From positions 18,710 through 82,709 of the forward strand of contig JBAZLA010000001.1 in NCBI GenBank assembly GCA_041650515.1: DNA of 64,000 nucleotides, in the 5' to 3' direction. This stretch comes from Patescibacteria group bacterium. GTDB lineage: Bacteria; Patescibacteriota; Patescibacteriia; JACRDY01. Made by a program: the position numbers and the translations under genes. The notes under the pieces are model-generated. The model was not told the DNA's origin, did not search any database, and saw only the letters and a program-made list of their open reading frames with translations. Shown here piece by piece: positions 27,370 to 61,435 of the stretch (positions are counted from its first letter, which is position 1; the number at the start of each line of letters is the position of its first letter).

Positions 27370-27388
27370 AATTTAATGATATTAATGG

Positions 27389-28480: not shown

Positions 28481-28484
28481 ACAG

Positions 28485-29186: not shown

Positions 29187-32100
29187 TATTTTACTACTAT
29201 ATTAATCAACCGCCCGGGAACAAAAATCACTTTAACTATTTCTTTACCAGTTAAATAACTTTTTACTTTTGTATCCACTAAGACTAACTCTTTAGCCTCG
29301 GTTTCGCTAATATCCGCTTTGACTTGAATATTGGTTCGCATTTTGCCGTTAATCTGGATCACCAAAGTGATTTCTTCTTCCTTAACTAACTCCGGATCAT
29401 ACTTGGGCCAGCTCTGGCAAAAAATACTTTTTTGGTGACCAAGCGTTTGCCACAACTCTTCGGCTAAGTGGGGCGAAAACGGTGCCAAAATTTTTAAAAA
29501 CAATTCCAAATTTTCCTGACTGACTTCTTTGGCTTCTTGAAAACCATTGACCAAAATCATCATGGCCGAAATCGCGGTATTATAGCGCATGTTTTCAATA
29601 TCCTCAGTAACTTTTTTGATTGTTTGATGAACTAATTTGTCGCCTTGTACCTTGCTACTTGTTACTTTTTCTTGAAGCAACCAAACTTTATCCAAAAACC
29701 GCCGCACACCATTAATCCCTTTGGTACTCCAGGGCTTGGTGTCTTCAAGCGGCCCCATAAACATTTCATAGAGTCGCATGCTGTCCGCGCCAAAATCGCG
29801 AACCACATCATCGGGGTTAATCACATTACCACGCGATTTGGACATTTTTTGGCCGTCTTCGCCCAAGATCATGCCTTGGTTGCGAAGTTTGAGAAACGGT
29901 TCAGCAAAATTAATATAACCCAGATCATACAAAACTTTGGTAAAAAACCGCGCATACATCAAATGCAGTACCGCATGTTCCGCTCCGCCAACATAGAGAT
30001 CAACTGGTAGCCATTTATTAATTTCTTTCTGGCTAGCAAACTCTTTTTTGTTCTCTGGATCAGTGTAACGGAAATAATACCAAGATGAACAAACAAAAGT
30101 ATCCATAGTATCGGATTCGCGTTTGGCGGGAGCACCACAAACCGGACATTTAACATTGTGAAATTTTTTAGAATTGACCAACGGCGACTCACCAGTTGGT
30201 TTAAAATCAACATCATCTGGCAATAAAACTGGTAAATCTTTCTCTGGCACCGGGACTAAACCCGAATTAGAGCCTAAAGAAAATTCTTCTAAAATTTCTG
30301 GGAAAGACAACATTCCCACCCGGCGATTAGAATGACCACGGTTATTAAATATTCTCACCCGGGCGCCCAAAGGCTGATAATCTTTTTCGACCGCTAACGG
30401 AATATAAGGATCGTTGTCTGAAAGATAAATAACAATTTCTTTGGCTAGTTTTTTTACTCGGACTAAATCAATTTTAGCTTGATTAAAATGCTTGGCCGCC
30501 TCAATACTATTCACCTCGGCACCGGCCGTTCGCATATTGCTCCAATTCTCCTCACTCTGAGACGGACCGGTCGGCGCGACTAAAATTAATTTTTCTATTG
30601 GTAAACCAGTTACCTGAATATATTGGCAAACAGCCGGGGCGCTCAGGCTGTGAGCGACGATAAAAATTTTATCTTCTTTTTTAAAATTGAGACTCTGCAG
30701 CGCCGCCACCCACTCGGCAATTGTCGGCACGCTAGCATTAGGCAAAATTGGAATTAAAACTTCATAGCCGCTATTTTCTAGTTGCTCTTTGAGCCAAGGA
30801 AACCAATTATCGTTAGCGTGAGCATTAAGACCGTGGGTTAATAAAACCTTAGGTTTTTTCTGAGCACAATGATCACAATAAATCATCGGGATGGGCGCGC
30901 CCCAATAGCGCTGGCGCGATACCAGCCAATCGCGAAGTTTGTACTGCGTTTTTAACTGACCACCGACTTTTTGCGTAATTTTTTTCTTGGCTTCTTCACT
31001 GGTTAAACCATCAAACTCGCCGGAATTAATCATGGTGCCAGTGCCAACCCAACACTTATAAGCTAAATCGCTACTTAAATGGCCATAAGCGCCCGGGCTG
31101 GCCATGCCAGATTCTATCGGACTGGCTGCCATTAAACTTTCTGGTTTAATCACTTCAATTATCGGCAAACTAAATTTTTTGGCGAACTCATAGTCTCGTT
31201 CATCGTGCGCCGGCACCGCCATGATTGCTCCAGTGCCATAGCCAGTCAAGACATAATCAGCCACAAAAATCGGTATTTCTTTATTGGTTGCCGGATTGAT
31301 GGCTCTAATACCCTTTAATTCCACACCGGTCTTGGCTTTAGCTAAATCGGTTCTTTCGATTTCATTCTTCTTTTGGGCCAACTTAATGTATTGCTCAACT
31401 TCTTCCCAATTTTTAATTGCCAATTTTAAATTATTAATCAAACCATGCTCTGGCGCCAGCACCATATAAGTTACGCCAAAAAGTGTATCCGGCCGCGTGG
31501 TAAAAACTTTAATTTTTACTGGTTCGCGAACCGCGGACAGCGAACCGCGGACAGCGAATTCTAACTCTGCTCCCTCACTCCGGCCGATCCAATTTTTTTG
31601 CATCAGCTTAATCGGCTCGGGCCAATCAATTGTATCCAAATCATTGAGCAGTCTATCAGCATACTGAGTCACTTTAAAAAACCACTGCTCTAGGTCTTTT
31701 TGCACCACTTCGTTGTGACAACGTTCGCATTGACCGGCGACCACCTGCTCATTAGCTAGTACTGTCTGACAAGAATTACACCAATTAACTTTGGCTTTCT
31801 TTTTGTAAGCTAAACCGTTTTTATAGAGCAACAAAAAAAACCACTGCGTCCATTTGTAATATGCTGGATCAGAAGTTTTAATTTCGCGTGACCAGTCATA
31901 ACTCAGGCCCAGCGACTGGATCTGGCGTCGAAAAGTTTCAACACTTTTGTCAGTCGTTATCTGTGGATGAACTTTTTGCTTGATGGCAAAATTTTCCGCT
32001 GGTAGGCCAAAAGCATCCCAACCCATCGGGTGTAAGACATCATAACCATTGAGTCGCAGATAACGGGAATAAATATCCGTCGCGGTGTAACCCTCAGGAT

Positions 32101-32251
32101 GACCAACGTGTAAACCAGCGGCTGACGGATAAGGAAACATATCCAAAATATATTTTTTCTTTTGGGGACTCTTGGGCGCTTGGTTAATTTTCTCCTTAGC
32201 CCAATATTTCTGCCACTTGGCTTCTATCTCTTGATGAATATACTTATCCAT
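29186..32251 (-). CDS. leuS: Leucyl-tRNA synthetase carrying an inserted alpha/beta-hydrolase domain (YdeN/RBBP9 family, about 210 aa) in the zinc-knuckle region
   Basis: HVGH (HIGH) motif, TTRPDT editing motif, KMSKS motif. The insert VLLTHGLNAHANDNWFPWL...IVAHSLSAPA...LVAPTGP lies between CDHC and VPVPEKDLPVLLP. Confidence 0.95.
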   Translation of the reverse strand: MDKYIHQEIEAKWQKYWAKEKINQAPKSPQKKKYILDMFPYPSAAGLHVGHPEGYTATDIYSRYLRLNGYDVLHPMGWDAFGLPAENFAIKQKVHPQITTDKSVETFRRQIQSLGLSYDWSREIKTSDPAYYKWTQWFFLLLYKNGLAYKKKAKVNWCNSCQTVLANEQVVAGQCERCHNEVVQKDLEQWFFKVTQYADRLLNDLDTIDWPEPIKLMQKNWIGRSEGAELEFAVRGSLSAVREPVKIKVFTTRPDTLFGVTYMVLAPEHGLINNLKLAIKNWEEVEQYIKLAQKKNEIERTDLAKAKTGVELKGIRAINPATNKEIPIFVADYVLTGYGTGAIMAVPAHDERDYEFAKKFSLPIIEVIKPESLMAASPIESGMASPGAYGHLSSDLAYKCWVGTGTMINSGEFDGLTSEEAKKKITQKVGGQLKTQYKLRDWLVSRQRYWGAPIPMIYCDHCAQKKPKVLLTHGLNAHANDNWFPWLKEQLENSGYEVLIPILPNASVPTIAEWVAALQSLNFKKEDKIFIVAHSLSAPAVCQYIQVTGLPIEKLILVAPTGPSQSEENWSNMRTAGAEVNSIEAAKHFNQAKIDLVRVKKLAKEIVIYLSDNDPYIPLAVEKDYQPLGARVRIFNNRGHSNRRVGMLSFPEILEEFSLGSNSGLVPVPEKDLPVLLPDDVDFKPTGESPLVNSKKFHNVKCPVCGAPAKRESDTMDTFVCSSWYYFRYTDPENKKEFASQKEINKWLPVDLYVGGAEHAVLHLMYARFFTKVLYDLGYINFAEPFLKLRNQGMILGEDGQKMSKSRGNVINPDDVVRDFGADSMRLYEMFMGPLEDTKPWSTKGINGVRRFLDKVWLLQEKVTSSKVQGDKLVHQTIKKVTEDIENMRYNTAISAMMILVNGFQEAKEVSQENLELFLKILAPFSPHLAEELWQTLGHQKSIFCQSWPKYDPELVKEEEITLVIQINGKMRTNIQVKADISETEAKELVLVDTKVKSYLTGKEIVKVIFVPGRLINIVVK

Positions 32252-33302: not shown

Positions 33303-33845
33303 TTATTCGGCTTTTTTGCTCAGGGTGATCCTCTTACACCCCTTGATGGCCGTGAGCCGATGGCGGCGTGGGATGGTCTTGGTGACCTTGTTTAGGACAG
33401 CCTCAAACTGCCCGGTGTCCCTGCCAACGCAACGGATAAAGGCCAGGTCATGATTCGCGACGAGTGTTCCAGCATCAACATCCAACACTGCCGCGAAAGT
33501 CAACACCGCCTCAAGCGGTATATCCTGCCAATCAGTAGATTCTCTCTCAATTGGAGAATCAGCTTCAAATTCCTCGGTGATGGTGGCGATCAAATCACCT
33601 CGAAGCACTGCCCAAAAAACAAAACCATCACCCAGTTTAGCTTCGATGCCAGCGTCGTCGAGAAGACGACAAAAATTTTCCACCTCTCGGAAGGTCAAAC
33701 TGCCGTACTTGTAACCCACTGACTTCACCGACGGCAAACCTTCCTGATCAGCCAAAAAGGCTAAAATCCTACGGCCGTGAGCTTTTGCCACTCTCGCCAG
33801 CTCTTCCAAATCCGCCAAACGGTAGTCTCTCCGATACTCTCTCAT
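33303..33845 (-). CDS. Hypothetical 180-aa protein; GC-rich, strong SD (AAAGGAGGA), own terminator
   Basis: Composition is clearly different from its neighbours. No family recognised. Confidence 0.45.
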   Translation of the reverse strand: MREYRRDYRLADLEELARVAKAHGRRILAFLADQEGLPSVKSVGYKYGSLTFREVENFCRLLDDAGIEAKLGDGFVFWAVLRGDLIATITEEFEADSPIERESTDWQDIPLEAVLTFAAVLDVDAGTLVANHDLAFIRCVGRDTGQFEAVLNKVTKTIPRRHRLTAIKGCKRITLSKKAE

Positions 33846-34308: not shown

Positions 34309-35634
34309 CTAATAGCCTCTAATTTTCATTGCTACCGCCACCCGCTTGATGCCCAAAATAAAAGCAGCGGTGCGCAGATCAATTTTCTTTTCTTTGGCGA
34401 TTGATTCAACACTAATAAAAGCTTTATCCATGACTACTTTTAGCCGTTTAGCCACTTCTTCTTCACTCCAATTTTCCCGATGCAGGTTTTGCAACCACTC
34501 AAAATAAGAAACCGTCACCCCGCCCGCATTAACCAAAACATCGGGGACAACAATTATCCCCCGCTTGTTTAATTTAACATCCGCTTCGGGCGTGGTTGGG
34601 CCATTGGCAATTTCCAAAATTACTTTAGCTTTGATCTTGCCGGCGTTTTGGGCCGTAATCTGATTTTCCAACGCCGCCGGGATCAAAATATCACACGGCA
34701 TTTCTAAAAGCTTGGCGCTAGCCATATGTTTATGTTCCACTTCATCACAAACCGAACCAGTGCAGTAATAACCATCAACCAAGCCTTTTTGTTTTTTAAT
34801 CTTCATTGTGCTTTCTGGGTGGAAAGAATCACCATTGGGTGAGTAGATACCGCCTTTAGAATCAGCTAAGCCAACTACACGGTAGCCAGCTCGATTAACC
34901 AGCTGAGCAATATGATAACCGGCATTACCAAAACCTTGGATAATCACTCGCAAACCACCTTTTGACTTTCGTACGGGCAAGTCGCGACTTGCCCCTGCTT
35001 TCATTTTCTTAACCACGTTTTCTAAAACATAGAACGCACCCTGAGCTGTCGCCGTATCGCGACCAAGCGACCCGCCGATTTCTACCGGTTTGCCGGTCAC
35101 AACGGCTGGTACTGGATAACCTTTAATTTTGGAGAACTCATCCATGATCCAAGCCATAATCTGCGGATTAGTATAAACATCGGGCGCCGGCACATCTTTA
35201 AGCGGGCCAATATATTCCTGAATCGCCTGAACATAGCCTCGAGTCATCCGTTCCAGCTCGCCAACGGACATTTTTTTGGGATCAACTTTGATCCCGCCTT
35301 TACCGCCGCCAAAGGGGATATCCACCACGGCGCATTTGACCATCATCCAAAAAGCCAAGGCCTTAACCTCATTAATATCCGATTGCGGATAATAACGGAT
35401 GCCACCCTTAAACGGACCACGAGCATCATTATACTGCACCCGATAGCCTTCAAAATTCTTGATCTGGCCATTATCCATCTTAACTGGCACAGTAAAATGT
35501 AACGCTCGCTTGGGTGAACGAAGTTTATCCAAAATCTCCGGATCAAGATCAAGATATTTGGCAGCCAAGTCTAGTTGTTTTAAAGCGTTGGTAAATGGGT
35601 TGGCAGTTCGCGGTTCGCGGTTCGCGGTTCGCAT
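34309..35634 (-). CDS. gdhA: Glutamate dehydrogenase
   Basis: Lys-Gly active-site region KGGIRY...GGGKGG. The first 12 codons, starting at the ATG at 35632-35634, lie within the (GCGAACC)n repeat and encode RTANREPRTANP. Confidence 0.9.
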   Translation of the reverse strand: MRTANREPRTANPFTNALKQLDLAAKYLDLDPEILDKLRSPKRALHFTVPVKMDNGQIKNFEGYRVQYNDARGPFKGGIRYYPQSDINEVKALAFWMMVKCAVVDIPFGGGKGGIKVDPKKMSVGELERMTRGYVQAIQEYIGPLKDVPAPDVYTNPQIMAWIMDEFSKIKGYPVPAVVTGKPVEIGGSLGRDTATAQGAFYVLENVVKKMKAGASRDLPVRKSKGGLRVIIQGFGNAGYHIAQLVNRAGYRVVGLADSKGGIYSPNGDSFHPESTMKIKKQKGLVDGYYCTGSVCDEVEHKHMASAKLLEMPCDILIPAALENQITAQNAGKIKAKVILEIANGPTTPEADVKLNKRGIIVVPDVLVNAGGVTVSYFEWLQNLHRENWSEEEVAKRLKVVMDKAFISVESIAKEKKIDLRTAAFILGIKRVAVAMKIRGY

Positions 35635-36120
35635 ATACAAAGTTTAGAAAATTTTAATATTGAATATTTTATACTAGTTTTATTAACTAATTAGCAAATA
35701 CAACTTTATGATGATTAAATCATACAAAGACCTACTCGTCTGGCAGGTAGGAATTGAGCTAGTAATAGCTACCTATGAGCTAACAGAGCAATTCCCGAAA
35801 AAAGAACAATTTGGACTAACCTCGCAGATTAGAAGAGCCTCAATCTCTATCCCATCTAATGTCGCCGAGGGTTATCAACGTAAAACTGATGGGGAACTTT
35901 TACGTTTCTTATTGATTGCTCTCGGTTCGGCCTCTGAACTAGAAACTCAACTTTTTTTAGCCAAAAAATTGAAAATGACATCCGAGGAATACTTTCTAAG
36001 AATAGATAATTTGTTAACACGAGTACTCCAGCTTACCAACTCTTTTATCAATAAACTACGCAAGGATACCGGGCGAACAGCGAACCGCGGCCAGCGAACC
36101 GCGGCCAGCGAACCGCAACA
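35595..36120. mobile_element. Inverted-repeat cassette carrying four-helix-bundle gene 2; left arm (GCGGTTC)x3-4, right arm (CAGCGAACCGCGGC)x3
   Basis: The flanks are reverse-complementary heptamer arrays. The cargo gene is antisense to both neighbours. Confidence 0.65.
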
Positions 36121-37338: not shown

Positions 37339-37432
37339 AAGTATGCGGCATACAGTATTTAGCATGCAGACGTCGGATACCACCGTTCCTAAAAAATGAT
37401 CCCTACATACTGCATACCGCATACTGTATACT
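37339..37432. repeat. Hairpin element with AGTATGC heptamer arms, between the aminotransferase and trxB
   Basis: agtatgcggcatacagtat...tacatactgcataccgcatactgtatac. Confidence 0.8.
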
Positions 37433-38393
37433 ATTTTTTCTTCTTGCCCCAATCAGGCAAAATCGTCTTACCAGTGGTTTTGGAAATATAATTAGAAGCA
37501 GCCAGCGCGGCTTTGGCACCATCGCCAGCGGCGATAACAATCTGTTTGTAAGGCGAAGTGGTTACATCACCCGCCGCAAAAATACCCGCTTGATTAGTCT
37601 GACCTCGCTCATCAACAATAATTTGGCCGGCTTCAGTAAGATCAATTAAACCTTTTAGCCAATCGGTTTTGGCAATATGTCCGATCTCCAAAAAAGTTCC
37701 ATCGACGGCCAACTCAAAATCAGCTTTTTGACCGGTTTTATCCTGAATAACAATTTTTTCTAATTTTTTATCACCTTTAAATCCAACTATATCAACGTCC
37801 AAAATCTTCTCTAGATTATCAAAAGTATCTAAACGTTCAACCAAAATAGAGTCGGCGACAAAAACTTCGCGCCGATGGAGTAGATAAACTTTTTTAGCGA
37901 TTTTGGTTAGCTCAATTACCGCCCCAATAGCTGAATTACCGCCCCCGACCACCGCTACTGTCTTACCCTTGTAGAACGGCGCATCACAAGTGGCACAAAA
38001 AGAAATACCCCGGCCCTTAAATTGTTCCTCGCCAGTAACGCCCAAACCACGGGGCGTCAAACCAAAAGCCAAAATAATCGCTACAGTGGTAAACTCTCCC
38101 GTATTGGTTCTGACTTGATAACCACCATCAATCAGCTCAATCTTTGTCACTTGGTCAAAAACAAACTGGCCGCCAAATTTTTCCACCTGCTGACGCATTT
38201 TAGTGATCAACTCTGGTCCAGAAATAAGGTCTAGGCCTGGATAATTCTCAATCTCGTGAGTCATCGCTACTTGGCCACCAAGGTCTTGAGCGATAATTAG
38301 CGTCTTTAGCTCTTTGCGTAAAGTATAAACCGCGGCGGTCAAACCCGCTGGCCCACCGCCAATAATTATCACTTCATATCGAATATTAGACAT
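37431..38393 (-). CDS. trxB: Thioredoxin-disulfide reductase
   Basis: GGGPAG FAD motif, CATCD redox site and GGGNSA NADPH motif. Confidence 0.9.
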   Translation of the reverse strand: MSNIRYEVIIIGGGPAGLTAAVYTLRKELKTLIIAQDLGGQVAMTHEIENYPGLDLISGPELITKMRQQVEKFGGQFVFDQVTKIELIDGGYQVRTNTGEFTTVAIILAFGLTPRGLGVTGEEQFKGRGISFCATCDAPFYKGKTVAVVGGGNSAIGAVIELTKIAKKVYLLHRREVFVADSILVERLDTFDNLEKILDVDIVGFKGDKKLEKIVIQDKTGQKADFELAVDGTFLEIGHIAKTDWLKGLIDLTEAGQIIVDERGQTNQAGIFAAGDVTTSPYKQIVIAAGDGAKAALAASNYISKTTGKTILPDWGKKKK

Positions 38394-38514: not shown

Positions 38515-38745
38515 CATTTGGGGTCTGGGGCGCCCGCCTACCCGCTTCGACTCGAATCGGGGCGAGGACTCGACATCTAGTCGAGGCTGGGATGCGGAGC
38601 GGAGGAATGACAACCACACAAAACCTGCTCTAAGTCATTCATTACACTCAGAATAAACTCCGTCGAAGGGGTCGGGATGACAATAAAAATAAAGTCGGTG
38701 AAATTTACCCTGGATGAGTACAGCGAAGCAAAACTGGTCGTAACA
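38515..38745. repeat. GC-rich structured repeat, copy C
   Basis: gggtctggggcgcccgcctacccgc...ggcgaggactcg...ggaggaatgacaacc...ggggtcgggatgacaat. Confidence 0.65.
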
Positions 38746-39173: not shown

Positions 39174-41174
39174 CTACTTTACCCGCTTCTCAATTCTTTC
39201 CTCGCTGTAAACTTCCAGGATATCGCCAACCATTAGCTCCGTTTTGCCTTCAAGCCTGATACCACAATCTGAGCCGCGCTCAACGTCTTTGACTTCTTCT
39301 TTACCAGCCTGCAGGCCGACAACGCGCAGCCGTTCCAAATCAAGGTCATTGCGCTTGAGCCGGACTTTAGCGCCGTTCTCTATTTTACCATTTTTTACCT
39401 TGCCGCCAATAATCTGATTATTTTTTACTTTCTTAAAAATCGCTAGAACTTCAACCTTGCCCATCTCTATCTCCCGAATCTCCACCTCAATCATCGAGTT
39501 AAGTCGCTCTTTAACTAAGTCTAAAAGTTCATAAATAATTTTGAAAGTTTTAACTTCAATATGTTTTTCTTTAGCAATCTCCACCGCAATCGGCTGAACC
39601 AAAACGTTAAACCCCAACACTAAAGCATCCTGGCCCTCAGCTTGTAAAACATCGGTCTCGGTGATATTACCTAACCCTCGACCAATAACTTTGTAGTTTA
39701 ATCCTTCAGGAAACTCCAGTTTTTCCAAAGACTCAACGATCGCTTCGGCCGAACCCAGGACATCAGTTTTTAAAATAAGTTTTAATACTTTACTTTTTTT
39801 GTCTTCTTCCTCGTCCGACTGGCTAGTCGACACCGCTGCTTTTGGTTCAGCCGGAGCAACCCTCTTGTTTTTTCTAACTTCCAGACTCTTGGTTTCGGTG
39901 ACTATCTCAATAATATCACCAACTTGCGGCGGCAATTTCCAGCCCAAAATCTTGACCGGCATACCCGGCGGCGCTTTGGTGACATCTTTACCTTGCCAAT
40001 CGCGCATCGCCCGCACTTTACCATAAAAAACACCGCCAACACTTAGAACATCATTAACCTGTAAAGTGCCACACTTAACTAACGCTGTACCAACTGCCCC
40101 TTCATTACGATCCAAATGGGCCTCAATCACCACGCCAACAGCTAACCGATCATAATCAGCGGTCATCTTGTCCTTCTCCATATCAGCAACTAAAAGAATA
40201 GTTTCCAAAAGCTGATCAATGTTCTGGCGCTGTTTAGCCGAAATCGGCACGCAGACCACCTGACCGCCCCAATCCTCAGGCAATAAATTTTCCCGCGCTA
40301 AATCTTGCTTAACTTTTTCAATATTGGCTTCGGGCTTATCAATTTTATTGATCGCTACCACAAAAGGTATCTTAACCGCTTGGATAATTCTAATAGCCTC
40401 AATCGTTTGCGGCTTAATCCCATCATCAGCCGCCACCACCAAAATAGCCACATCCGCTACCTTGGCGCCACGCGACCGCATGGAGGTAAAAGCTTCGTGA
40501 CCGGGCGTATCAATGAACGTAATCGCCCGACCATTTTTAGTTGCCTGATAAGCACCAATATGTTGGGTGATACCACCAAACTCTTTATCAACCACATTAG
40601 TTTGTCTAATTGCATCGAGTAATTTAGTCTTGCCGTGATCAACGTGGCCCATTACCACGACGATTGGCGGCCGCGGTCGCAGATTGCTCTGATCACCGGC
40701 CGCTAAAATTTCTTTTAATTTATCGTCATTAGATAAATCAGCTAATTCATCAGGCGCCTCGGTTTTTTCTACTTTGAGGCCCAAATCTTCAGCAATGATG
40801 GCTGCCGTGTCAAAATCAATTCGCTCGTTAAGCGTCGCTAAAATGCCGTTACCCATTAATTCTTTAATCACCTGATTGATTGGCAAACCAATCTTCTCGG
40901 CAAACTCTTTAACGGTTAAAATTGCCGGCAAAACAATCGGCCCACTCTGTTCCATCTGCTGTTTGCGTTCTTCTATTTGTTTTTGCTTGAGCTCAGCTAA
41001 TTTTTTGGCCTCATAGGCGCGATAGAGCCGGGGCCATTCTTTAAGAATTTTTTGGGCCACCCGCGGATCAATCTTAATCGCCCGCTGACCAATATCAAAA
41101 CCAAACTGCGGCAACAGCTCGAATAATTCTTTAGTATTGACTCTTAATTTGCGGGCTAATTCAGTAACATTCAT
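39174..41174 (-). CDS. infB: Translation initiation factor IF-2
   Basis: GHVDHGKT, DTPGH and NKID G-domain motifs plus C-terminal beta-barrels. Confidence 0.95.
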   Translation of the reverse strand: MNVTELARKLRVNTKELFELLPQFGFDIGQRAIKIDPRVAQKILKEWPRLYRAYEAKKLAELKQKQIEERKQQMEQSGPIVLPAILTVKEFAEKIGLPINQVIKELMGNGILATLNERIDFDTAAIIAEDLGLKVEKTEAPDELADLSNDDKLKEILAAGDQSNLRPRPPIVVVMGHVDHGKTKLLDAIRQTNVVDKEFGGITQHIGAYQATKNGRAITFIDTPGHEAFTSMRSRGAKVADVAILVVAADDGIKPQTIEAIRIIQAVKIPFVVAINKIDKPEANIEKVKQDLARENLLPEDWGGQVVCVPISAKQRQNIDQLLETILLVADMEKDKMTADYDRLAVGVVIEAHLDRNEGAVGTALVKCGTLQVNDVLSVGGVFYGKVRAMRDWQGKDVTKAPPGMPVKILGWKLPPQVGDIIEIVTETKSLEVRKNKRVAPAEPKAAVSTSQSDEEEDKKSKVLKLILKTDVLGSAEAIVESLEKLEFPEGLNYKVIGRGLGNITETDVLQAEGQDALVLGFNVLVQPIAVEIAKEKHIEVKTFKIIYELLDLVKERLNSMIEVEIREIEMGKVEVLAIFKKVKNNQIIGGKVKNGKIENGAKVRLKRNDLDLERLRVVGLQAGKEEVKDVERGSDCGIRLEGKTELMVGDILEVYSEERIEKRVK

Positions 41175-41246
41175 TAAGGCTGGATTATTTTAAATTAAGT
41201 ATAAATAAGTTTATCTTGTTTGCAGTGATAAGTCAATTAAGATATT

Positions 41247-41945
41247 ATGAGAACGAATATGTTTATACTTATCAATAAACCCGCCGGTTGGACATCGCAT
41301 GACGTGATTGGCCGGCTGCGCCGGATTACTGGCGAAAAACGCATTGGCCACGCCGGCACGCTTGACCCCTTTGCCACCGGTCTTTTGATTGTGGCCATTA
41401 GTCGCGAATCAACCAAACAAATCGATCAATTTGTAAAACTAAACAAAGAATATCTAGCCACAATTAAACTCGGCGCGACTACTGATACTTATGATAAAAC
41501 TGGAAAGATACAGAAAAGCAAAGAAGCAATAAAACAAGAAAACAAAAATATTAAAAAGGCTTTAGAATCGTTCATTGGCCCCCAGTTGCAGATCCCGCCA
41601 ATGTTTAGCGCCAAAAAAGTAAACGGCAAAAAACTCTACGAATTGGCCCGACGAGGCAAGGAAATTGAGAGAAAACCGAGCCAGATTAATATTACTGATT
41701 TAGAAATTATTGACTATCACTGGCCGGATTTGAAAATTAAAGTTAACTGCTCCTCTGGCACCTATATCCGCAGCTTGGCCCATGATCTGGGAATTAAGCT
41801 GGGTTGCGGCGGGTATTTAGAAGAATTAACTCGAACTAAAATTGGTAATTTTGATTTAAAAAATGCAATTACTCTAGATAAATTAACACCGGAAAACTGG
41901 CAAACGCTAGTTCATAGTACAGAGTACACAGTACCCAGTATCTAA
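41247..41945 (+). CDS. truB: tRNA pseudouridine(55) synthase
   Basis: HAGTLDP catalytic Asp motif. The last roughly 10 codons overlap an AGTACAN heptamer array. Confidence 0.9.
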
Positions 41946-42026
41946 ATTCCCTCTTTTTTATTATAATACCCCATTCCTTAAGAAAACTGGGGGTATTAGT
42001 ATCTATGTATTATGTACTCTGTATGG
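41913..42026. repeat. Heptamer-arm hairpin (AGTACAG/AGTACAC units) spanning the truB 3' end
   Basis: catagtacagagtacacagtacccagtatc ... gtattagtatctatgtattatgtactctgtatgg. Confidence 0.6.
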
Positions 42027-42030
42027 AGTT

Positions 42031-42062
42031 TACCCTGAGCAAAGCGAAGGGTACTATTTTTA
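42031..42062 (+). terminator. Rho-independent terminator of truB
   Basis: taccct-gagcaaagcga-agggta followed by ctattttt. Confidence 0.6.
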
Positions 42063-42099
42063 TAAATGAAGAAGGACCTTTCGCGTGGTTAGCTAGGGT

Positions 42100-42235
42100 C
42101 CTTCGTTAATGGCATTTTGGCCGTGAACGCTGGCCCGCCTAGACTCGCGTCTGGCGAGGCTGGGAAGCGTTTCTGGCACTGGACTAAGCTCAGCAAGCGG
42201 GGGCTGAACTCAGACCGAGTAGGTGCCGCTGTGAT
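42100..42235. repeat. GC-rich structured repeat, copy D
   Basis: ggcccgcctagactcgcgtctggcgaggctgg is shared with copies B and C. Confidence 0.6.
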
Positions 42236-43089
42236 CAGGGCACCGACGGCGGAACAATGGAAAAGCCGATGGTCCAGTACGTTCTCTGATAGTACTGTTT
42301 GTCGGGTTCCTGTTCCGTGGTTGGCATGTCCTCGTTGAAACCGCGGAGACGGCGATAGGCCTCGCGGTTGTCCGGATCGGTGTAATGGGCGACGTCAACG
42401 AGTGCGCCGCCCCACAACCGTAGCCTCCAGCCCGTGCTGGGATAAGCCAGGTTGAACCCGATGGTCGGACCGACGAGAAATTTCCACCCCTCGTCGTCCG
42501 GAAGAAACTTGCAGGCGGTCTCCTCGTCGATCACGTCGTGATCGACGCGTTCGAGGATGGCGCGCTCGCTGGCCGTTTGGTAGTGGTACCATCTGGCCAT
42601 GACGCCGAGGAAGGCAATGCGGTGGATCTCGTACCCCGAGCGGGCTTCGAGCAGGATCCGCTCCAAGGGCTCGTTGCCGTAATCGGGCATGTAGTGCCCG
42701 TCCACGGCGAATTCAAACCCATGAGTGGTCACGAAGACTCCCGGATGGAGATCAAACGTGACTGCCATGGCGCCAGCGCCGCCCACCCCGCCGAAGAGGT
42801 GGACATTGAGGATTCCGCTGAACCCGCGATAGACCATTCCCAGGCCACCTTGGGTCAACGGATATGCCCCATCCAGGTCGAAGTACATCGGATCATCCCA
42901 GTTATGAGAGATGACGACCCGACCTTCGAGGGCCAACGCGACGTTGTGCGGCCCATCCTTGGACAGGTAATACATCGCGTCAATGTCCGCGATGATCGGG
43001 CCGGCCTTCTCGCTCTCGGCGTGGGCGATGGTGGCGGTGAACAGGATGGACAACAGGACGATACAGACGATACAAATGATGCGTTTCAT
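42235..43089 (-). CDS. Secreted beta-rich protein, possibly outer-membrane-barrel-like, with a signal peptide; GC-rich, strong SD (AAGGAG)
   Basis: MKRIICIVCIVLLSILFTATIAHA signal peptide. The mature part is Gly/Tyr/Trp/Asp-rich with alternating hydrophobicity. Estimated at about 60% GC against about 40% in the flanks, by eye. Confidence 0.5.
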   Translation of the reverse strand: MKRIICIVCIVLLSILFTATIAHAESEKAGPIIADIDAMYYLSKDGPHNVALALEGRVVISHNWDDPMYFDLDGAYPLTQGGLGMVYRGFSGILNVHLFGGVGGAGAMAVTFDLHPGVFVTTHGFEFAVDGHYMPDYGNEPLERILLEARSGYEIHRIAFLGVMARWYHYQTASERAILERVDHDVIDEETACKFLPDDEGWKFLVGPTIGFNLAYPSTGWRLRLWGGALVDVAHYTDPDNREAYRRLRGFNEDMPTTEQEPDKQYYQRTYWTIGFSIVPPSVP

Positions 43090-43099
43090 GGGTTGCTCC

Positions 43100-43363
43100 T
43101 TATCGCTTTTCGGTGATAGTGTCGTCAGATTCGATCTTTCTTACCCGGACTATGACTAACCGGGTAATAGCCATAACGGCCAGGCTGATGCCCAACCAGA
43201 TTGCCGCGTCGGCCCGCTGCCCGCTGATAAAAATCAGTCGCAGCAGGTGCTGGAACGCGCACGGGAACATCAGAACGAATATGACCCAACAAATTTGGGC
43301 AGTGATTCTCAAAAACATGACTTGCCTCCGTTGATTCGTGTGATTCGTGTTATCTTTGAACAA
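43100..43363 (-). CDS. Small (87-aa) two-TM membrane protein, co-oriented with the secreted-protein gene; GGAGG SD
   Basis: ORF with an SD 6 nt upstream, in a GC-rich context. Confidence 0.4.
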   Translation of the reverse strand: MFKDNTNHTNQRRQVMFLRITAQICWVIFVLMFPCAFQHLLRLIFISGQRADAAIWLGISLAVMAITRLVIVRVRKIESDDTITEKR

Positions 43364-43573
43364 ACCTGACGGTTTGTCCGTTTTTTCCGCTATATGTAAG
43401 CAGATTCAAAATCTGCCTATTGGAAGGTACAATCACCCTCGCTTTAGCCTGAAATGGCTAATTTGAGTGTGACAATATATAATAGCATAGTTTGAGATAA
43501 AAGTCAATGAAAACCACCAAAAAACAGCTTAATTTAGCTATTTTTTGGGTTTTGACAGCCTAAAATAGCAACG

Positions 43574-43687
43574 GTGCGGGCCCAATCCCGGACACCCCCT
43601 CCTAACCTCCCCCTTTGCAGGGGGAGGGCCGGTCTCCTCCCCTGCTAAGGGGAGGAACAAGGTGGGGTGTCCGGGATTGGGCCTGCA
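43574..43687. repeat. Palindromic multi-hairpin GC element (25-nt outer inverted repeat enclosing cctcccccTTTGCAgggggagg and ctcctccccTGCTAAggggaggaa hairpins)
   Basis: Outer arms gtgcgggcccaatcccggacacccc / ggggtgtccgggattgggcctgcac. Related to the element at 56758-56878. Confidence 0.75.
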
Positions 43688-43702
43688 CCGACGTTAGCAT
43701 TT

Positions 43703-43726
43703 CAAAAAACGGTCCTTTCGGGCCGT
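43703..43726 (-). terminator. Rho-independent terminator of purH; A-run/hairpin/T-run, possibly bidirectional
   Basis: aaaaaacggtcctttcgggccgt. Confidence 0.55.
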
Positions 43727-43757
43727 CTACTGTGTACTGGGTACTCGGTACTATGGA
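43727..43757. repeat. Tandem heptamer array (GTACTGN)x4 between the purH stop and its terminator
   Basis: ctactgtgtactgggtactcggtactatggac. Confidence 0.7.
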
Positions 43758-43762
43758 CTAAA

Positions 43763-45331
43763 TTAATGTTTAAACGCCCTAATCCCAGTGAAAACCATCA
43801 CCAAACCCTGTTCATCCGCCGCTTTGATTACTGTTTCGTCATTAATCGACCCACCCTGTTGGGCGATAACCGCCACACCGGCTTTAGCAATCAATTCGAT
43901 ACTATCAGGAAATGGAAAAAAACTATCTGAACAAAGCACGCTGCCTTTAACCTTATCACCAGCTTTTTTAATCGCAATCTCCACCGAATCAACTCGCGAC
44001 ACCTGACCGCAACCCACGCCGAGCGTGGTTTTATTTTGGGAGATTAAAATAGCGTTAGAATTCATATTCTTCATCACTTGCCAGTTAAATAATATTTCCT
44101 CAATCTGGGCTTTAGTCGGTTGATTTTCAGTTACTACCTTCAAGTCCTCTTTTTTCAAATGATAAGTGTCATAATCTTGAATCAACATCCCACCCTCTAC
44201 TTGCCGCAGGTTTAAACCGATCTTTTCTGATTTAATTTCTCCCAGCTCAAGAATTCTAATATTCTTTTTTTGCTGCAAAATTTCTAGCGCCCCAGCTTCG
44301 TAGCTTGGCGCCATCACTATTTCGGCAAACACTTTATTGATCGCTTCAGCGATTTTTTTGGTTAGTGGCCGGTTGAGCGCGATTACCCCGCCAAAAGCCG
44401 ACTTACTATCCGCGTCATAAGCTTGCTGAAAAGCAATATCAATATTTTGGTGGACTGATACGCCGCAGGGGTTACCATGTTTAACCACCACCGCCACTGG
44501 CTCAATAAATTCTTTAACAATATTTAGAGTGCGATCGGCATCAACAATATTATTAAACGACAATTCTTTGCCGTGCAAAATTTTAGCGTTAATCACATTA
44601 CAGCCACTATTATCAATCTCTTTATACGCCGCGGCGGCTTGATGCGGGTTTTCACCATAACGACAGTCATAAAACTTTTGATAATTTAAATTGAGTTGAG
44701 CGGGAAATTTGCTATCGGTCACCGGCCACCGGCCACCGGCTGATAGATAATTATAAATTGTTGAATCATAAAGCGCCGTATGAGCAAAAGCGCGTTGCAT
44801 CAATTGCTCACGCAGTTCATAGCTCAAGCCGCCTTTAGTTTTGAGCTCGGCCAACACTTCCGCGTAGTCCGCCGGATCAACCACCACGCCAACCCAGCCA
44901 CAATTCTTGGCCGCGGCGCGCACCATGGTCGGTCCGCCAATATCAATATTTTCAATCACTTCATCCAAACTAACGCCGGACTTCTTAATCACTTGCGAAA
45001 ATGGATAGAGATTAACCACCACTAGATCAATAAATTCGATCCCCTGACTTTTGGCCACGACTTGGTGCTCTTTATTGTCGCGCAAGGCTAAAATGCCACC
45101 GTGAATCTTGGGGTGCAAGGTTTTGACCCGACCGTCCATCATCTCGGGAAAACCAGTGTAGTCGCTGACTTCTTTAACCTTGATTTTAGCTTCTTTTAAT
45201 TTTTTAAATGTCCCGCCGGACGACAAAATCTCCACGCCCATCTTATCTAGCTCTTGAGCGAACTCGACTATGCCGGTCTTATCAAAAACTGAGATAAGAG
45301 CGCGTTTGATTTGAACTAGTGATTGATTCAT
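43763..45331 (-). CDS. purH: Bifunctional AICAR transformylase / IMP cyclohydrolase
   Basis: MGS-like and AICARFT domains. Contains an in-frame (CACCGGC)x3 array at 44710-44730, encoding GGRWPVT. Confidence 0.95.
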   Translation of the reverse strand: MNQSLVQIKRALISVFDKTGIVEFAQELDKMGVEILSSGGTFKKLKEAKIKVKEVSDYTGFPEMMDGRVKTLHPKIHGGILALRDNKEHQVVAKSQGIEFIDLVVVNLYPFSQVIKKSGVSLDEVIENIDIGGPTMVRAAAKNCGWVGVVVDPADYAEVLAELKTKGGLSYELREQLMQRAFAHTALYDSTIYNYLSAGGRWPVTDSKFPAQLNLNYQKFYDCRYGENPHQAAAAYKEIDNSGCNVINAKILHGKELSFNNIVDADRTLNIVKEFIEPVAVVVKHGNPCGVSVHQNIDIAFQQAYDADSKSAFGGVIALNRPLTKKIAEAINKVFAEIVMAPSYEAGALEILQQKKNIRILELGEIKSEKIGLNLRQVEGGMLIQDYDTYHLKKEDLKVVTENQPTKAQIEEILFNWQVMKNMNSNAILISQNKTTLGVGCGQVSRVDSVEIAIKKAGDKVKGSVLCSDSFFPFPDSIELIAKAGVAVIAQQGGSINDETVIKAADEQGLVMVFTGIRAFKH

Positions 45332-50360: not shown

Positions 50361-50377
50361 ATTCGTAACATATACAT

Positions 50378-50474
50378 TAGTATGCAGGGATAAGTATGTA
50401 GTATGCAGGGGTTAATCCCCACGAATGGCGGGGCCTAAACCCTGCATACTACATACTATATACTAGATACTGAC
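50378..50474. repeat. Hairpin element with AGTATGC heptamer arms, between purD and purF
   Basis: agtatgcagggataagtatgtagtatgcaggggtt ... aaccctgcatactacatactatatactagatact. Confidence 0.8.
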
Positions 50475-51968
50475 CTAAAACATCATCTGCTCATTAAGCG
50501 GGATTTTATCTTGTTTAGCCTTATCGGCTGAACGCTCTTCTTCAATCTGCTGTAAGACCTTTTCATCAACATCGCCAGTTGGGTATTCACCACTAAAGCA
50601 GGCTGTGCAGAGTTTAATAATTTTATGATCGCCTTTACGAGTAACCGCCTCAACTAAATCACTTAAATCCTGATAAATCAAAGCATCAGCGCCAATACTT
50701 TTACAGATTTCTTCTTCGTTTAGATTATTAGCAACAAATTCCGCCCGGGTCGGCATATCAATGCCATAGACACACGGCCAGCGTAAGGCTGGCGCGGTCG
50801 AAGCCAGATAAACTTTTTTGGCACCATGTTTACGCACCAGACTAACAATCTGCTGTGAAGTATTACCACGAACGATACTGTCATCAACAATCAAAACATT
50901 CTTATCATTAATCTCTAGATCAATCGGCGATAGTTTGTGACGGACTGATTTTTTACGTTCAGCCTGACCAGGCATAATAAAGGTGCGGCCAATAAACTGA
51001 TTTTTGACTAAACCTTCAGTATAACGGACACCCAGATTATGGGCACAAGACAACGCCGCCACATTAGCCGTCGAGGGTGCAGGTATTACTACATCAATCG
51101 GCAAGTCGGGGTAGAGTTTCCTGATTTTATTAGCTAAATTTTGGCCCATGCGCAGCCGTGCTCGATGAACGCTCACCCGATCCAACATGGCATCCGGTCG
51201 CGCGAAATAGACATACTCAAAAATACAAGGTCGGCGTTCTTTCTGACCAACAATCTTGCTGTGGACTTCGTGTTTGGTATCAATGAAGATCACCTCACCT
51301 GGCTCAACATCACGAACATACTCAAACCCCAAAATATTAAACATCGTGTTTTCGGAAGCAAAAATATATTCGATTTGAAAATCTTTTTCCCGTTTACCCA
51401 TCACTAGTGGCTTGATGCCATAAGGATCGCGAAAAACCAACAAACCTTTATTAGCAATATAAGCTACCGAAGAATAAGCACCTTTAGCTCTTCTATAAAT
51501 CGTTTCCACGGCTTTAAAAACATCAGCCTCAAAATTTTTACCATTATTCCGGCGCAGACCATCTGCGAGAAGATTAAGCAAAATTTCGGCGTCACAGTTA
51601 GAGTTAACATGACGGAGATCTTTCTCACTTAGTTCTTGCTTTAACTGAGTAAAATTATGGAGGTTGCCATTATGAGCTAAGGTGATACCATAGGGCGACT
51701 CAACATAGAACGGCTGAGCGTCTTCATAATTATTTCCACCAACAGTAACGTAACGAACATGACCAATACCCACATTACCTTTAAGCCGCATAACGTCTTT
51801 CTCCCGAAAAATATCACGCACTAAACCCAACCCTTTTTTCATATGAAACTGACCATCAAAAGTACAGATGCCACAAGCATCTTGACCGCGATGTTGTAAA
51901 GCTAAAAGACCATCATAGATATCAACCACTGCGTCTTTATTAGCCATGATCCCGACGATACCACACAT
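50475..51968 (-). CDS. purF: Amidophosphoribosyltransferase
   Basis: N-terminal MCGIVGI nucleophile plus a PRTase domain. Confidence 0.95.
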   Translation of the reverse strand: MCGIVGIMANKDAVVDIYDGLLALQHRGQDACGICTFDGQFHMKKGLGLVRDIFREKDVMRLKGNVGIGHVRYVTVGGNNYEDAQPFYVESPYGITLAHNGNLHNFTQLKQELSEKDLRHVNSNCDAEILLNLLADGLRRNNGKNFEADVFKAVETIYRRAKGAYSSVAYIANKGLLVFRDPYGIKPLVMGKREKDFQIEYIFASENTMFNILGFEYVRDVEPGEVIFIDTKHEVHSKIVGQKERRPCIFEYVYFARPDAMLDRVSVHRARLRMGQNLANKIRKLYPDLPIDVVIPAPSTANVAALSCAHNLGVRYTEGLVKNQFIGRTFIMPGQAERKKSVRHKLSPIDLEINDKNVLIVDDSIVRGNTSQQIVSLVRKHGAKKVYLASTAPALRWPCVYGIDMPTRAEFVANNLNEEEICKSIGADALIYQDLSDLVEAVTRKGDHKIIKLCTACFSGEYPTGDVDEKVLQQIEEERSADKAKQDKIPLNEQMMF

Positions 51969-55409: not shown

Positions 55410-55421
55410 AATTCGTAATTC

Positions 55422-56878: not shown

Positions 56879-56882
56879 ATAT

Positions 56883-61376: not shown

Positions 61377-61435
61377 CTTTAACTTGATTTTTTAGAAAAA
61401 TTTGCTAAGGTTCTAATTAATCATTGGAGGGGCAC

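Follow-up and report, generated by a model that had tools for sequence, protein, structure and literature searches.

A GC-rich islet of two ORFan genes between truB and purH in a Patescibacteria genome, probably of foreign origin

In a Patescibacteria genome of ~41% GC, how does a short GC-rich stretch with two genes come to lie between truB and purH, and what might these genes do? An earlier note on this DNA had described a high-GC island of 1.6 kb, acquired or possibly created by a chimeric assembly join, that encodes an outer-membrane-like exported protein and a small membrane protein. Our analysis shows that the island is real and indicates that it is probably a genomic islet acquired too recently for its base composition to have approached that of its host. 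Coordinates refer to the window, by which we mean the whole 64,000-nt stretch of DNA analysed; some comparisons cover 82 kb of the same genome.

Extent and composition of the island

The island sits in a 1.8-kb, repeat-filled spacer separating the convergent genes truB and purH. A two-boundary likelihood change-point analysis places this foreign DNA at 42118..43265, with 59.7% GC compared with 42.4% in the flanks, and the GC step at its truB-side border (42118/42119) is sharp. GC reaches 0.60–0.63 in 400-nt windows of the island, against a mean of 0.41 for the window, and the island's 1222 nt at GC ≥ 0.58 form the longest such run in the window, where the runner-up measures 368 nt. Under a host-trained third-order Markov model the island has a z of -5.0 and is the segment least like the host in the window; all of the 12 least host-like 1150-nt windows overlap it.

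The GC profile, the change-point, and the Markov score thus confirm a high-GC island far above chance, but the compositional island is ~1.15 kb long, not 1.6 kb. On the purH side, positions 43345..43560 form an AT-rich, host-like spacer (GC 0.23–0.43 in 30-nt windows), in which the island operon has its putative promoter and 5' UTR, and the palindrome at 43572–43690 is a separate element.

Two genes in one operon

The larger gene, orf284 (42235..43089, minus strand; NCBI accession MFA5075850.1, locus tag WC480_00305), is truly coding: it shows codon-position periodicity (chi-square p = 1.5e-17), and a stop-free run of at least 285 codons has a probability of 0.0025 in random sequence of island composition. 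It is 59.8% GC, with GC1/2/3 of.60/.41/.775. Its GC3 is the highest of 91 ORFs in 82 kb, compared with 0.404 ± 0.045 in the host (21 genes), and its R/(R+K) is 0.73 vs 0.33 in the host.

The predicted product is exported. Residues 1–24 (MKRIICIVCIVLLSILFTATIAHA, encoded by 43018..43089, minus strand, and followed by ES) comprise MKR, 18 hydrophobic residues, and an AHA / ES cleavage site with A-x-A at -3 to -1. Hydropathy peaks at 2.95 over residues 4–22, and this signal peptide is the only segment of the protein above 1.6 (19-residue Kyte-Doolittle mean); there is no lipobox. The Sec signal peptide with an AHA site that the earlier note had proposed is therefore present by a rule-based reading of hydropathy and A-x-A. 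The mature chain would comprise 260 aa (29 kDa, pI 4.8) with 10.8% Gly, 13.5% aromatic residues, little Lys, and one of the three Cys of the full-length protein.

The smaller gene, orf72 (43100..43318, minus strand), was identified from ORF and gene calls and from hydropathy as encoding a predicted small ORFan membrane protein. Its 72 aa include two hydrophobic segments and end in a charged tail, RKIESDDTITEKR, in agreement with the membrane protein already suggested. At 50.7% GC (GC3 0.66) it falls short of the ~60% GC that had been ascribed to both genes and that holds for orf284. The two genes form one minus-strand operon with a 10-nt gap and orf284 downstream. Both have the canonical Shine-Dalgarno (SD) sites claimed for them, and at the correct spacing: AAGGAG for orf284 (43096..43101, minus strand), which overlaps the TAA stop codon of orf72, and GGAGG for orf72 (43325..43329, minus strand).

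Candidate signals for transcription lie on either side of the pair. A promoter-like site ~160 nt upstream of orf72 (43479..43507, minus strand) consists of TTGACT, a 17-nt spacer, and TG-TATTAT, with 10 of 12 consensus matches, although promoter-like sites in the region are no more numerous than in shuffles. Downstream, the 3' UTR of orf284 (42119..42234, minus strand) is GC-rich and structured (fold z -3.1; local fold z -4.9 and -5.0) and contains copy D of a GC-rich repeat. It is followed by a hairpin, GAAGGACC...GGTCCTTC, and a U-rich run (42071..42104, minus strand; fold z -4.25), the likely terminator of the island operon. Transcription would begin in the AT-rich spacer at the TTGACT/TATTAT-like site (43479–43507) and stop at the hairpin (42071–42104), and the two genes may be translationally coupled via their strong SD sites. 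After export by Sec, the orf284 product would either be set free or stay at the cell surface, possibly with orf72 as its membrane partner.

Acquisition from an unsampled donor

The island is set apart from the host by its GC, GC3, Arg/Lys usage, fit to a tetranucleotide model, and strong SD sites. These five compositional and SD signatures, including the Markov z of -5.0 and a GC3 of 0.78 vs 0.40, bear out the acquisition that had been suggested from the sequence, and we regard acquisition as well supported. In the simplest model, ~1.15 kb from an unsampled donor of ~60% GC would have inserted between truB and purH. Horizontal transfer and genomic islands have been reported as common in Patescibacteria, where they may make up as much as 13% of the length of a genome (PMC12455944), and horizontal acquisition here is an ordinary kind of event.

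Gene, domain, and database searches yielded no donor, homolog, integrase, or transposase for the island. Convincing target-site duplications are likewise absent, the direct repeats found being weak (15 nt, 80% identity), and the island is not next to a tRNA, the sole tRNA of the window being at 6687–6758. In scans of genome contigs with truB and of metagenomes with purH, the closest truB is 65–66% identical and the closest purH 54% identical; the relatives found are all distant and lack truB-purH adjacency, and no empty truB-purH site was recovered among them. One related CPR locus (L009) carries an unrelated GC-rich, SD-led enzyme gene.

By these sequence searches, orf284 and orf72 are complete ORFans. 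Each matched itself alone in a word-indexed search of 5.8 billion proteins. A full phmmer search of orf284 against 1.84 billion representatives returned itself and a 2742-aa cadherin-like protein (E 5e-10), a match that we rejected as spurious because six near-identical 209-aa repeats each weakly match the same ~40 residues. Neither protein matched a Pfam or NCBIfam family (for orf284, none even at E ≤ 10), PADLOC gave no match, and PHROGs gave no significant one, the best being a family of unknown function for orf72 (E = 0.16). A phmmer search of PDB produced a spurious BurrH match only; tblastn against the PLSDB plasmids and INPHARED phages, together with a scan of IMG/VR, detected no match to the island proteins; and no alternative reading frame of the island matched a family. 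AlphaFold2 single-sequence models of orf284 reach a pLDDT of only 39.6 (full-length) and 35.5 (mature), so that the function of the pair is a matter of pure inference. Our committed guess is that the two are accessory cell-envelope or surface proteins of a new family, and not a porin. As an exported ORFan, orf284 may reasonably be considered for a part in cell-surface biology or in interaction with a host, and two expressed-looking genes without a relative in ~15 billion proteins suggest that ultra-small episymbionts draw on unsampled gene pools.

Outer-membrane and phage-lysis interpretations

The porin-like character first attributed to orf284 raises the possibility of a diderm-type outer-membrane beta-barrel (porin/OmpW/MipA-like) that was taken from a Gram-negative donor. 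In a CPR cell it would either have no function or serve a new purpose, for instance after delivery to the outer membrane of the cell's host. The Sec signal peptide, acidic pI, Gly and aromatic content, single mature Cys, and low Lys of the protein are consistent with a barrel, as are ~12 stretches that by eye alternate between hydrophobic and polar residues, and a hydrophobicity autocorrelation with the same signs as in OmpA (positive at lag 2, negative at lag 3, positive at lag 4). A mature size of 260 aa also suits barrels of 10–12 strands. However, the outer-membrane protein (OMP) families of Pfam and NCBIfam are unmatched even at E ≤ 10, as is PDB, and the C-terminus ...FSIVPPSVP (YWTIGFSIVPPSVP) has no terminal aromatic beta-signal; the outer-membrane label is not upheld. 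The beta-moment (z 0.6) and lag-2 autocorrelation (z 0.6–1.2) are not significant, in a test that is weak because OMP controls reach a lag-2 z of just 0.6–3.1, with OmpA and OmpX barely significant. The low-confidence AlphaFold models contain four helices, and zero homologs in billions of proteins would be unusual for OMP families. The general view is that CPR bacteria have neither an outer membrane nor the BAM machinery; no BamA/Omp85 gene occurs in the 82 kb of genome seen. We consider a barrel unlikely.

It is also quite unlikely, in our estimation, that a phage or ssDNA mobile element of a GC-rich host left the pair behind as a remnant or 'moron', with orf72 holin-like and orf284 an exported lysis or surface-modifying protein. 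The layout of orf72 does resemble a class II holin (~70 aa, two TM segments, charged C-terminus) directly upstream of an exported protein, complete ORFan status is typical of phage genes, and the pervasive predicted nucleic-acid structure (z about -6) recalls single-stranded replicons. Against this, neither protein has a significant PHROG (the E = 0.16 of orf72 being the best), INPHARED, PLSDB, and IMG/VR are all unmatched, orf284 has no muralytic domain, and nearby phage genes, an integrase, and att-like repeats are absent.

A class of SD-led, GC-elevated genes

The island is not the only part of this genome in which raised GC3 and strong SD sites coincide. Nine Pfam-less ORFs in the 82 kb combine a GC3 of at least 0.53 (0.53 to 0.78) with a strong SD, the islet being the most extreme, and the association between SD and GC3 is significant (Fisher p = 5e-10). 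The 63 genes with an SD of less than 5 nt, core genes among them, have a GC3 of no more than 0.47 throughout, and the SDs of orf284 and orf72 are at least 5 nt long. Because the core genes (about 60) lack SD sites, accessory or foreign genes can be told apart almost perfectly in this genome by a strong SD combined with raised GC3, and we suggest the combination as a simple, cheap new marker of such genes in an SD-poor genome.

Members of the class also share an excess of predicted mRNA structure (mean z about -3 vs -0.4 for 13 host genes, p = 0.001). For the orf284 mRNA, the predicted structure greatly exceeds expectation (z about -6), and the sense strand of the island folds at z -3.5 to -6, the antisense strand at -2.3. 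Base pairs in the island are short-range, with a median span of 26–28 nt, and the fold is not rod-like; a viroid- or Obelisk-like rod was rejected because of this short range. The excess mRNA structure is outside what the simple acquisition model explains.

These shared features could mean that the island is native, an extreme member of a class of small genes with elevated GC, SD sites, and structured mRNAs under a special translational regime; consistent with this, none of the nine members (0/9) is associated with mobility genes. However, the GC3 of orf284 and its use of Arg over Lys point to long evolution in a GC-rich background. The members show no paralogy that we could find, and unrelated genes whose GC3 is spread from 0.53 to 0.78 fit independent acquisitions at different stages of drift. 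Moreover, related CPR loci mostly lack such genes, that of locus L009 being an enzyme gene of another kind. A native origin therefore seems to us quite improbable.

Flanking repeats and a possible gene-capture element

The earlier note had described the island as bracketed by structured repeats and heptamer hairpins. All of these elements are present and structured, but they are not the borders of the island, as they belong to host-wide families that recur in the window. On the truB side, a heptamer (GTACNNN) hairpin (41908..42025, plus strand; z -3.0) has a left arm that encodes the last ~12 codons of truB. On the purH side, a heptamer array (43727..43760, plus strand), in which the pattern GTACNNNGTACNNNGTAC has 15 matches vs 0.04 expected, is the inverted partner of 41908–41940; the resulting 33-nt inverted repeat (41908–41940 / 43728–43760) is 88% complementary. 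Overlapping this array is an intrinsic-terminator-like hairpin of purH (GACGGCCCGAAAGGACCGUUUUUU; 43701..43732, minus strand). Next to it lies the palindromic element (43572..43690), with 52-nt arms and two CCTCCCC-N-GGGGAGG mini-hairpins (dG -102 kcal/mol, z -9.8). Further copies of the GGGGAGG palindrome at 56761–56781 and in two other loci (L010 and L023) mark it as part of a host or wider repeat family.

GC-repeat D has a 30-nt motif, at 42142–42169, in common with 38567–38596 (z 6.4); its family shares short motifs only, and a MAFFT alignment was uninformative. No Rfam family matched the island at the gathering score or at E ≤ 5, and the palindrome gave a generic hairpin-type match only. 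None of these repeats, be it heptamer hairpin, GGGGAGG palindrome, or GC repeat, marks an end of the island; all are resident families that occupy the host's intergenic DNA in general. The heptamer inverted repeat was considered as the termini of the island, an idea weakened by the local partner of the truB-side arm (42000–42025) and by the genome-wide occurrence of the arrays.

The arrays are mostly intergenic tandem 7-mers with many sequence variants in one genome, and none like those flanking the island was found in the 160 other loci compared. All three of the long-loop heptamer inverted repeats seen enclose accessory genes, both IVP genes in the window lie between inverted repeats of 32–35 nt, and of the five ORFs with the highest GC3 in the 82 kb, four are within 1.2 kb of a GTAC-type array. 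A tie to GC-rich IMG/VR phages that bear GTAC-heptamer arrays was rejected, as these have no protein or DNA similarity to the island. Conceivably, as the enclosed accessory genes, the closeness of high-GC3 ORFs to arrays, and the statistical coherence of the nine-ORF class hint, the island is the cargo of an undescribed cassette whose heptamer hairpin arms (IVS-/MITE-like) serve to capture or insert SD-led, GC-rich ORFans with structured mRNAs. Heptamer hairpins would then occur empty (6765–6863, 50377–50475) or loaded with IVP genes (5629–6222, 35598–36114), and 41908–43760 would be a hairpin loaded with foreign genes. We regard this as very doubtful; if correct, genes would be captured here much as in an integron, but with no recombinase nearby.

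Assembly chimera and non-coding RNA

The chimeric join raised as a possibility in the earlier note, or a GC-rich contaminant stitched into a CPR contig, would account for the sharp compositional step at 42118/42119. Two contigs of the independent Logan assembly do break here: one (L164) equals window positions 40623–42162 at 100% identity, spanning the truB-side border and reaching 44 nt into the island, the other (L002) equals 42135–44938 at 100% identity, spanning the purH-side border, and they share just 28 nt (42135–42162) inside GC-repeat D. This overlap implies that the Logan assembly graph forks at the truB-side border, perhaps owing to a repeat or to strain heterogeneity.

However, each border is crossed by one of these contigs, and an ENA MEGAHIT k141 contig is identical over the island, differing from the window at 47538 and 52397 only, so that both junctions are reproduced exactly. 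A false join with k=141 needs shared 140-mers at both borders, and the window has no such repeat, which argues against a chimera. The contig that holds the island is continuous over 472 kb, with host sequence in its usual gene order on both sides, and all contigs on record that encode orf284 have an identical CPR context. A chimera is thus highly improbable; we treat the island as a true insertion in a CPR metagenome-assembled genome, which is not contamination and should not be trimmed as a GC outlier.

The idea that a large, structured non-coding RNA accounts for the GC-rich stretch, with ORFs there by accident, can practically be dismissed: GC-rich islands in AT-rich genomes are often RNA genes and the sense strand folds better than the antisense, but the three-base periodicity and 285-codon ORF, the correctly spaced SD and ATG sites, the textbook signal peptide, the lack of an Rfam match even at E ≤ 5, and the short-range pairing all speak against it.

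Comparison with known systems

The island pair can be compared with cassettes of a class II holin and an exported or SAR endolysin, with which it shares a small two-TM, charged-tail protein upstream of an exported one and apparent translational coupling, but no significant match links it to a PHROG, a Pfam holin, or a muralytic domain, and it lacks a phage context. Similarly, orf284 resembles OMP beta-barrels (OMP_b-brl, OmpA-, OmpW-, and MipA-like) in its signal peptide, acidic Gly- and aromatic-rich composition, compatible size, and by-eye alternation, and differs from them in having no HMM match, beta-signal, or significant amphipathic periodicity, in its poor but helical models, and in its CPR host.

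For the flanking repeats, the closest precedents are heptanucleotide tandem repeats, known from cyanobacteria (STRR) and as the TAACTGA arrays of Beggiatoaceae (PMC4679880). Like these, the CPR arrays are short tandem 7-mers, mostly intergenic, with many variants; unlike them, they are often paired in inverted orientation, which gives long hairpins (z -7 to -8), and whole genes lie between some of the pairs. A second precedent is the intervening sequence of 23S rRNA that encodes an IVP (PF05635), since the island likewise lies between the arms of a 33-nt inverted repeat. In contrast to such intervening sequences, the CPR elements lie outside rRNA and have heptamer arrays as arms. The cargo of the island shows no relation to IVP, and a local partner exists for the truB-side arm as well.

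The reading that we prefer, a recently acquired islet, finds its counterpart in the genomic islets described for Patescibacteria (PMC12455944). The island differs from these in its tiny size (1.15 kb, two genes), its completely unsampled donor, and its lack of an integrase or transposase, a tRNA target, and flanking direct repeats. It shares with them an atypical GC, codon usage, and oligonucleotide signature, homolog-less genes without assigned function, and an intergenic position amid housekeeping genes.

The truB-purH islet

The convergent genes truB (41247-41945, plus strand) and purH (43763-45331, minus strand) are separated by a 1.8-kb spacer with a strikingly GC-rich centre, where GC reaches 0.60-0.63 in 400-nt windows, compared with an average of 41% for the window. 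Positions 42001-43000 form the only 1-kb bin in the window with GC > 0.5, and the longest stretch with GC >= 0.58 is 42070-43291 (1222 nt; the runner-up is 368 nt). Two-boundary likelihood change-point analysis places the island at 42118-43265 (59.7% versus 42.4% GC). When a third-order Markov model is trained on the remainder of the window, the island scores z = -5.0, and the 12 windows of 1150 nt that are least like the host all overlap it, so the GC and oligonucleotide profiling called for in an earlier note singles out the island as the least host-like segment. The high-GC island described there is real, but it spans about 1.15 kb rather than 1.6 kb. Positions 43345-43560 are AT-rich and host-like, and the GC-rich palindrome (43572-43690) is an element of its own.

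The islet contains two minus-strand ORFs, orf284 (42235-43089) and orf72 (43100-43318). The former is a genuine coding sequence: its GC1/2/3 values are 0.60/0.41/0.775 (chi-square p = 1.5e-17), a 285-codon stop-free run is seen in 0.25% of random sequences with the island composition, and its other reading frames have no family matches. It is also compositionally foreign to the host, with the highest GC3 of 91 ORFs when the window is extended to 82 kb (0.775 versus 0.404 +/- 0.045 in host genes; maximum 0.46, n = 21) and an R/(R+K) of 0.73 versus 0.33 in host proteins. At NCBI it is a "hypothetical protein" from a Patescibacteria MAG (MFA5075850.1; WC480_00305), while orf72 has no gene call.

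The predicted Sec/SPase-I signal of orf284 is of the textbook type, as previously noted: the N-terminus reads MKRIICIVCIVLLSILFTATIAHA followed, after the predicted cleavage site, by ESEK, and includes the sole hydrophobic segment of the protein. The mature product (260 aa, 29 kDa, pI 4.8) contains 10.8% Gly, 13.5% aromatic residues, and 1.9% Lys. The small orf72 product combines two hydrophobic helices with a charged tail; its gene is only 51% GC (GC3 0.66), and not about 60% as had been estimated for both genes.

Both ORFs have strong, correctly spaced Shine-Dalgarno (SD) sites, GGAGG for orf72 and AAGGAG for orf284. Because AAGGAG overlaps the stop codon of orf72, the two genes look translationally coupled. 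Upstream, a promoter-like TTGACT-17-TG-TATTAT (43479-43507, minus strand) matches the consensus, a kind of site no commoner here than in shuffles. The stable hairpin at 42071-42104 (z -4.25) could serve as the operon terminator.

Homology and possible function of the islet proteins

Searched against 5.8 billion clustered proteins, orf284 and orf72 each matched only themselves, and neither had a match in Pfam, NCBIfam, PHROGs, PADLOC, PDB, PLSDB plasmids, INPHARED phages, or IMG/VR. A full HMMER scan of 1.84 billion representatives with orf284 returned itself and one 2742-aa cadherin-like protein, in which six nearly identical 209-aa repeats each weakly match the same ~40 residues; we rejected this candidate as repeat-inflated. 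Two AlphaFold2 runs of orf284 without an alignment gave pLDDT values of 39.6 and 35.5, too low to warrant comparing folds.

The earlier note had read orf284 as an outer-membrane, porin-like protein. By eye, the mature sequence does have an OMP-like composition and about a dozen runs alternating hydrophobic and polar residues. However, the HMM search against OMP families proposed at the time gave nothing even at E <= 10, the C-terminus (...FSIVPPSVP) does not finish in an aromatic beta-signal residue, and the poor-quality models place helices at 142-181 and 242-252. The beta-hydrophobic moment and lag-2 autocorrelation are not significant (z 0.6-1.2), in a weak test for which the controls OmpA and OmpX score z 0.6-3.1. 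The outer-membrane interpretation is unproven, not supported by these results, and in our judgment unlikely. A phage-type pair, with orf72 as a holin preceding an exported protein, fits the layout of the two genes but finds neither family support nor phage context, and we consider it quite improbable.

Nor is the island likely to be the chimeric join once suspected; at the level of the assemblies, that possibility is effectively excluded. The window differs from the 472,517-bp ENA MEGAHIT contig k141_1064255 by one indel (47538) and one SNP (52397), both far from the island. Two Logan contigs from run SRR8542065, built with a different assembler, agree across it at 100% identity: L164 (window 40623-42162) carries IF2', truB, the heptamer hairpin, and 44 nt of the island, and L002 (42135-44938) continues through the remainder of the island, the spacer, and the palindrome into 1.2 kb of purH. 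Every recorded contig that encodes orf284 shows the same context, self-comparison found no 140-mers shared at the two borders (the prerequisite of a false join at k = 141), and a chimera would not resume the original host genome 1.15 kb further on. One caveat is that the Logan contigs end and overlap by 28 nt (42135-42162) inside GC-repeat D, the GC-rich repeat copy at the island's left edge; this is a fork in that assembly graph, which may stem from strain heterogeneity or from another copy of the repeat.

Foreign GC, GC3, Arg/Lys usage, and Markov signature instead support the acquisition that had been suggested. These observations favor a small islet of ORFan genes gained by horizontal transfer, which is an ordinary kind of thing; its interest lies in the total absence of relatives and in its predicted exported product. 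It also exposes a genome-wide pattern, in which an SD-less core contrasts with SD-led, GC-rich, structure-rich ORFans among heptamer-array hairpins.

The host and a class of SD-led ORFs

Judged by its truB, IF2, ComEC, T4SS pilin, and ribosomal genes, the host belongs to Patescibacteria, and the best truB matches are Falkowbacteria-like MAGs. The closest truB is only 65-66% identical, and the closest purH among the JGI metagenome contigs scanned only 54%; species-representative genomes share the IF2-truB adjacency but not truB-purH. From 43763 to 63972, and running on into locus L167 just past the window end, lies a large gene cluster for de novo purine biosynthesis that is nearly complete (purH, purN, purD, purF, purB, purE, purC, purQ, purM, purL, purA, folD). 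Nucleotide synthesis is usually absent in CPR bacteria.

The 74 genes called across 82 kb (the window with loci L165 and L167) fall into a two-class structure. In 63 genes, core genes included, the SD match is shorter than 5 nt and GC3 is 0.28-0.47; most of these, almost every core gene among them, lack any SD-like match and lie behind AT-rich upstream regions. In nine Pfam-less ORFs with GC3 >= 0.53, in contrast, GGAGG or AGGAGG precedes the ATG by 4-6 nt in every case (Fisher p = 5e-10). These are orf72, orf284, 6292-6606 (minus), 33303-33845 (minus), and 61424-61696 (plus) in the window, and 2998-3315, 3735-3974, 4913-5335, and 8456-8770 (minus) in L167. They are unrelated to one another, and four encode membrane or exported proteins.

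The orf284 mRNA is predicted to be unusually structured (MFE -372 kcal/mol), compared with -335 +/- 11 for dinucleotide shuffles (z -3.45) and -328 +/- 7 kcal/mol for codon permutations (z -5.96). For comparison, z is -2.3 on the antisense strand, +0.9 to -1.9 in five host genes, and +1.0 to -1.3 in seven GC-rich control genes. The excess takes the form of local hairpins all along 43030-42386 and peaks in the 3' UTR; a viroid- or Obelisk-like origin was rejected, as the fold is not rod-like. Under a codon-permutation null, excess folding is likewise seen in the remaining eight SD-led ORFs (mean z -2.7, versus -0.42 for thirteen small host genes), and pooling all nine, orf284 included (mean z ~-3.1), gives a Mann-Whitney p = 0.001 against those thirteen. 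One possibility is that the ORFs share a type of donor; another is that strong SDs make up for mRNA structure in a host where translation otherwise begins on AT-rich leaders free of it.

The SD-led class is most simply read as the product of repeated gains from donors that use SDs and are richer in GC, the truB-purH islet being its largest and least host-adapted case. Frequent horizontal transfer has been reported in Patescibacteria (PMC12455944). A related CPR genome of 43% GC (CAYHBZ010000002.1, locus L009; labelled "Gammaproteobacteria", by appearance a mislabel) encodes at 11291-12115 a 274-aa inositol-monophosphatase-like protein with a strong SD. This gene (GC 0.60-0.66, GC3 0.72) is unrelated to the islet genes and looks like an independent acquisition in the same clade, still at donor-like composition.

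Repeat families around the islet

Repeats had been thought to bracket the island, but none of the flanking elements marks a compositional boundary, and all belong to host repeat families. A 33-nt inverted repeat (88% complementary) encloses the island; because its truB-side arm also pairs locally with 42000-42025, the enclosure may be coincidental. The palindrome at 43572-43690 (dG -102 kcal/mol, z -9.8) holds CCTCCCC-N-GGGGAGG mini-hairpins (43606-43655), which recur at 56761-56781 in the element 56759-56880. Such mini-hairpins (spacing N(3-9); 3 in the window versus 0 expected) are components of larger intergenic elements that are GC-rich and palindromic; more of the mini-hairpins lie in an unrelated CPR locus (L010 6445-6465) and a Verrucomicrobia locus (L023 4780-4799). 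GC-repeat D, which has no Rfam match, shares a 30-nt motif with 38567-38596. Two further GC-rich intergenic elements, 7811-7938 and 38520-38610, are moderately structured (plus-strand z -2.4 and -2.6), have the motif GGATGCGGnGCGGAG in common, and have no Rfam match even at E <= 5; the former finishes, like a small-RNA gene, with a closing stem and then a run of T.

GTACNNN arrays lie at 5636-5660, 6191-6215, 6765-6796, 6839-6863, 41910-41941, and 43727-43758 (15 pattern matches in the window versus 0.04 expected), and neither they nor other heptamer arrays were found in 160 other loci compared. Arrays of many other units, among them AGTCCAC, GTATGCA, CGCGAAC, TTTTGAC, TGTTGGC, and TAATTCG, are abundant, mostly intergenic or at gene 3' ends. 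Heptamer arrays of all types occupy 5327-5354, 5636-5660, 6188-6224, 6760-6863, 27388-27419, 28455-28486, 35598-35636, 36073-36116, 37402-37434, 41907-42025, 43723-43760, 50377-50475, 55401-55437, 55778-55811, 55985-56026, and 59233-59270. They often form inverted pairs that yield long, very stable hairpins (6760-6870, z -7.7; 50370-50480, z -7.1).

A CGCGAAC-type array (31525-31545) lies within the leucyl-tRNA synthetase ORF (29186-32251, minus strand, 1021 aa), which also has a Ser_hydrolase (PF06821) match inserted between its tRNA-synt_1 segments. Many (CTGAGTA)n or GTAC-type arrays occupy short gaps directly upstream of ORFs in several GC-rich (0.59-0.65) IMG/VR viral contigs (L169, L174, L229, L231 [IMGVR_UViG_3300035125_000073]; L175; L180), one of which has a CCCCAAT (STRR1-like) array too; none of these contigs is similar to the island.

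The heptamer arrays resemble the cyanobacterial STRR and the TAACTGA arrays of Beggiatoaceae (PMC4679880), but occur here in a CPR genome. Both genes of the 23S-rRNA-IVP family in the window (PF05635, four-helix-bundle) are enclosed by 32-35-nt inverted heptamer arrays of the GTAC and CGCGAAC types (5629-6222 and 35598-36116), and in truB, as in the second IVP gene, the C-terminal codons are supplied by the arrays themselves. The layout of these enclosed genes resembles the IVS cassette, here outside rRNA.
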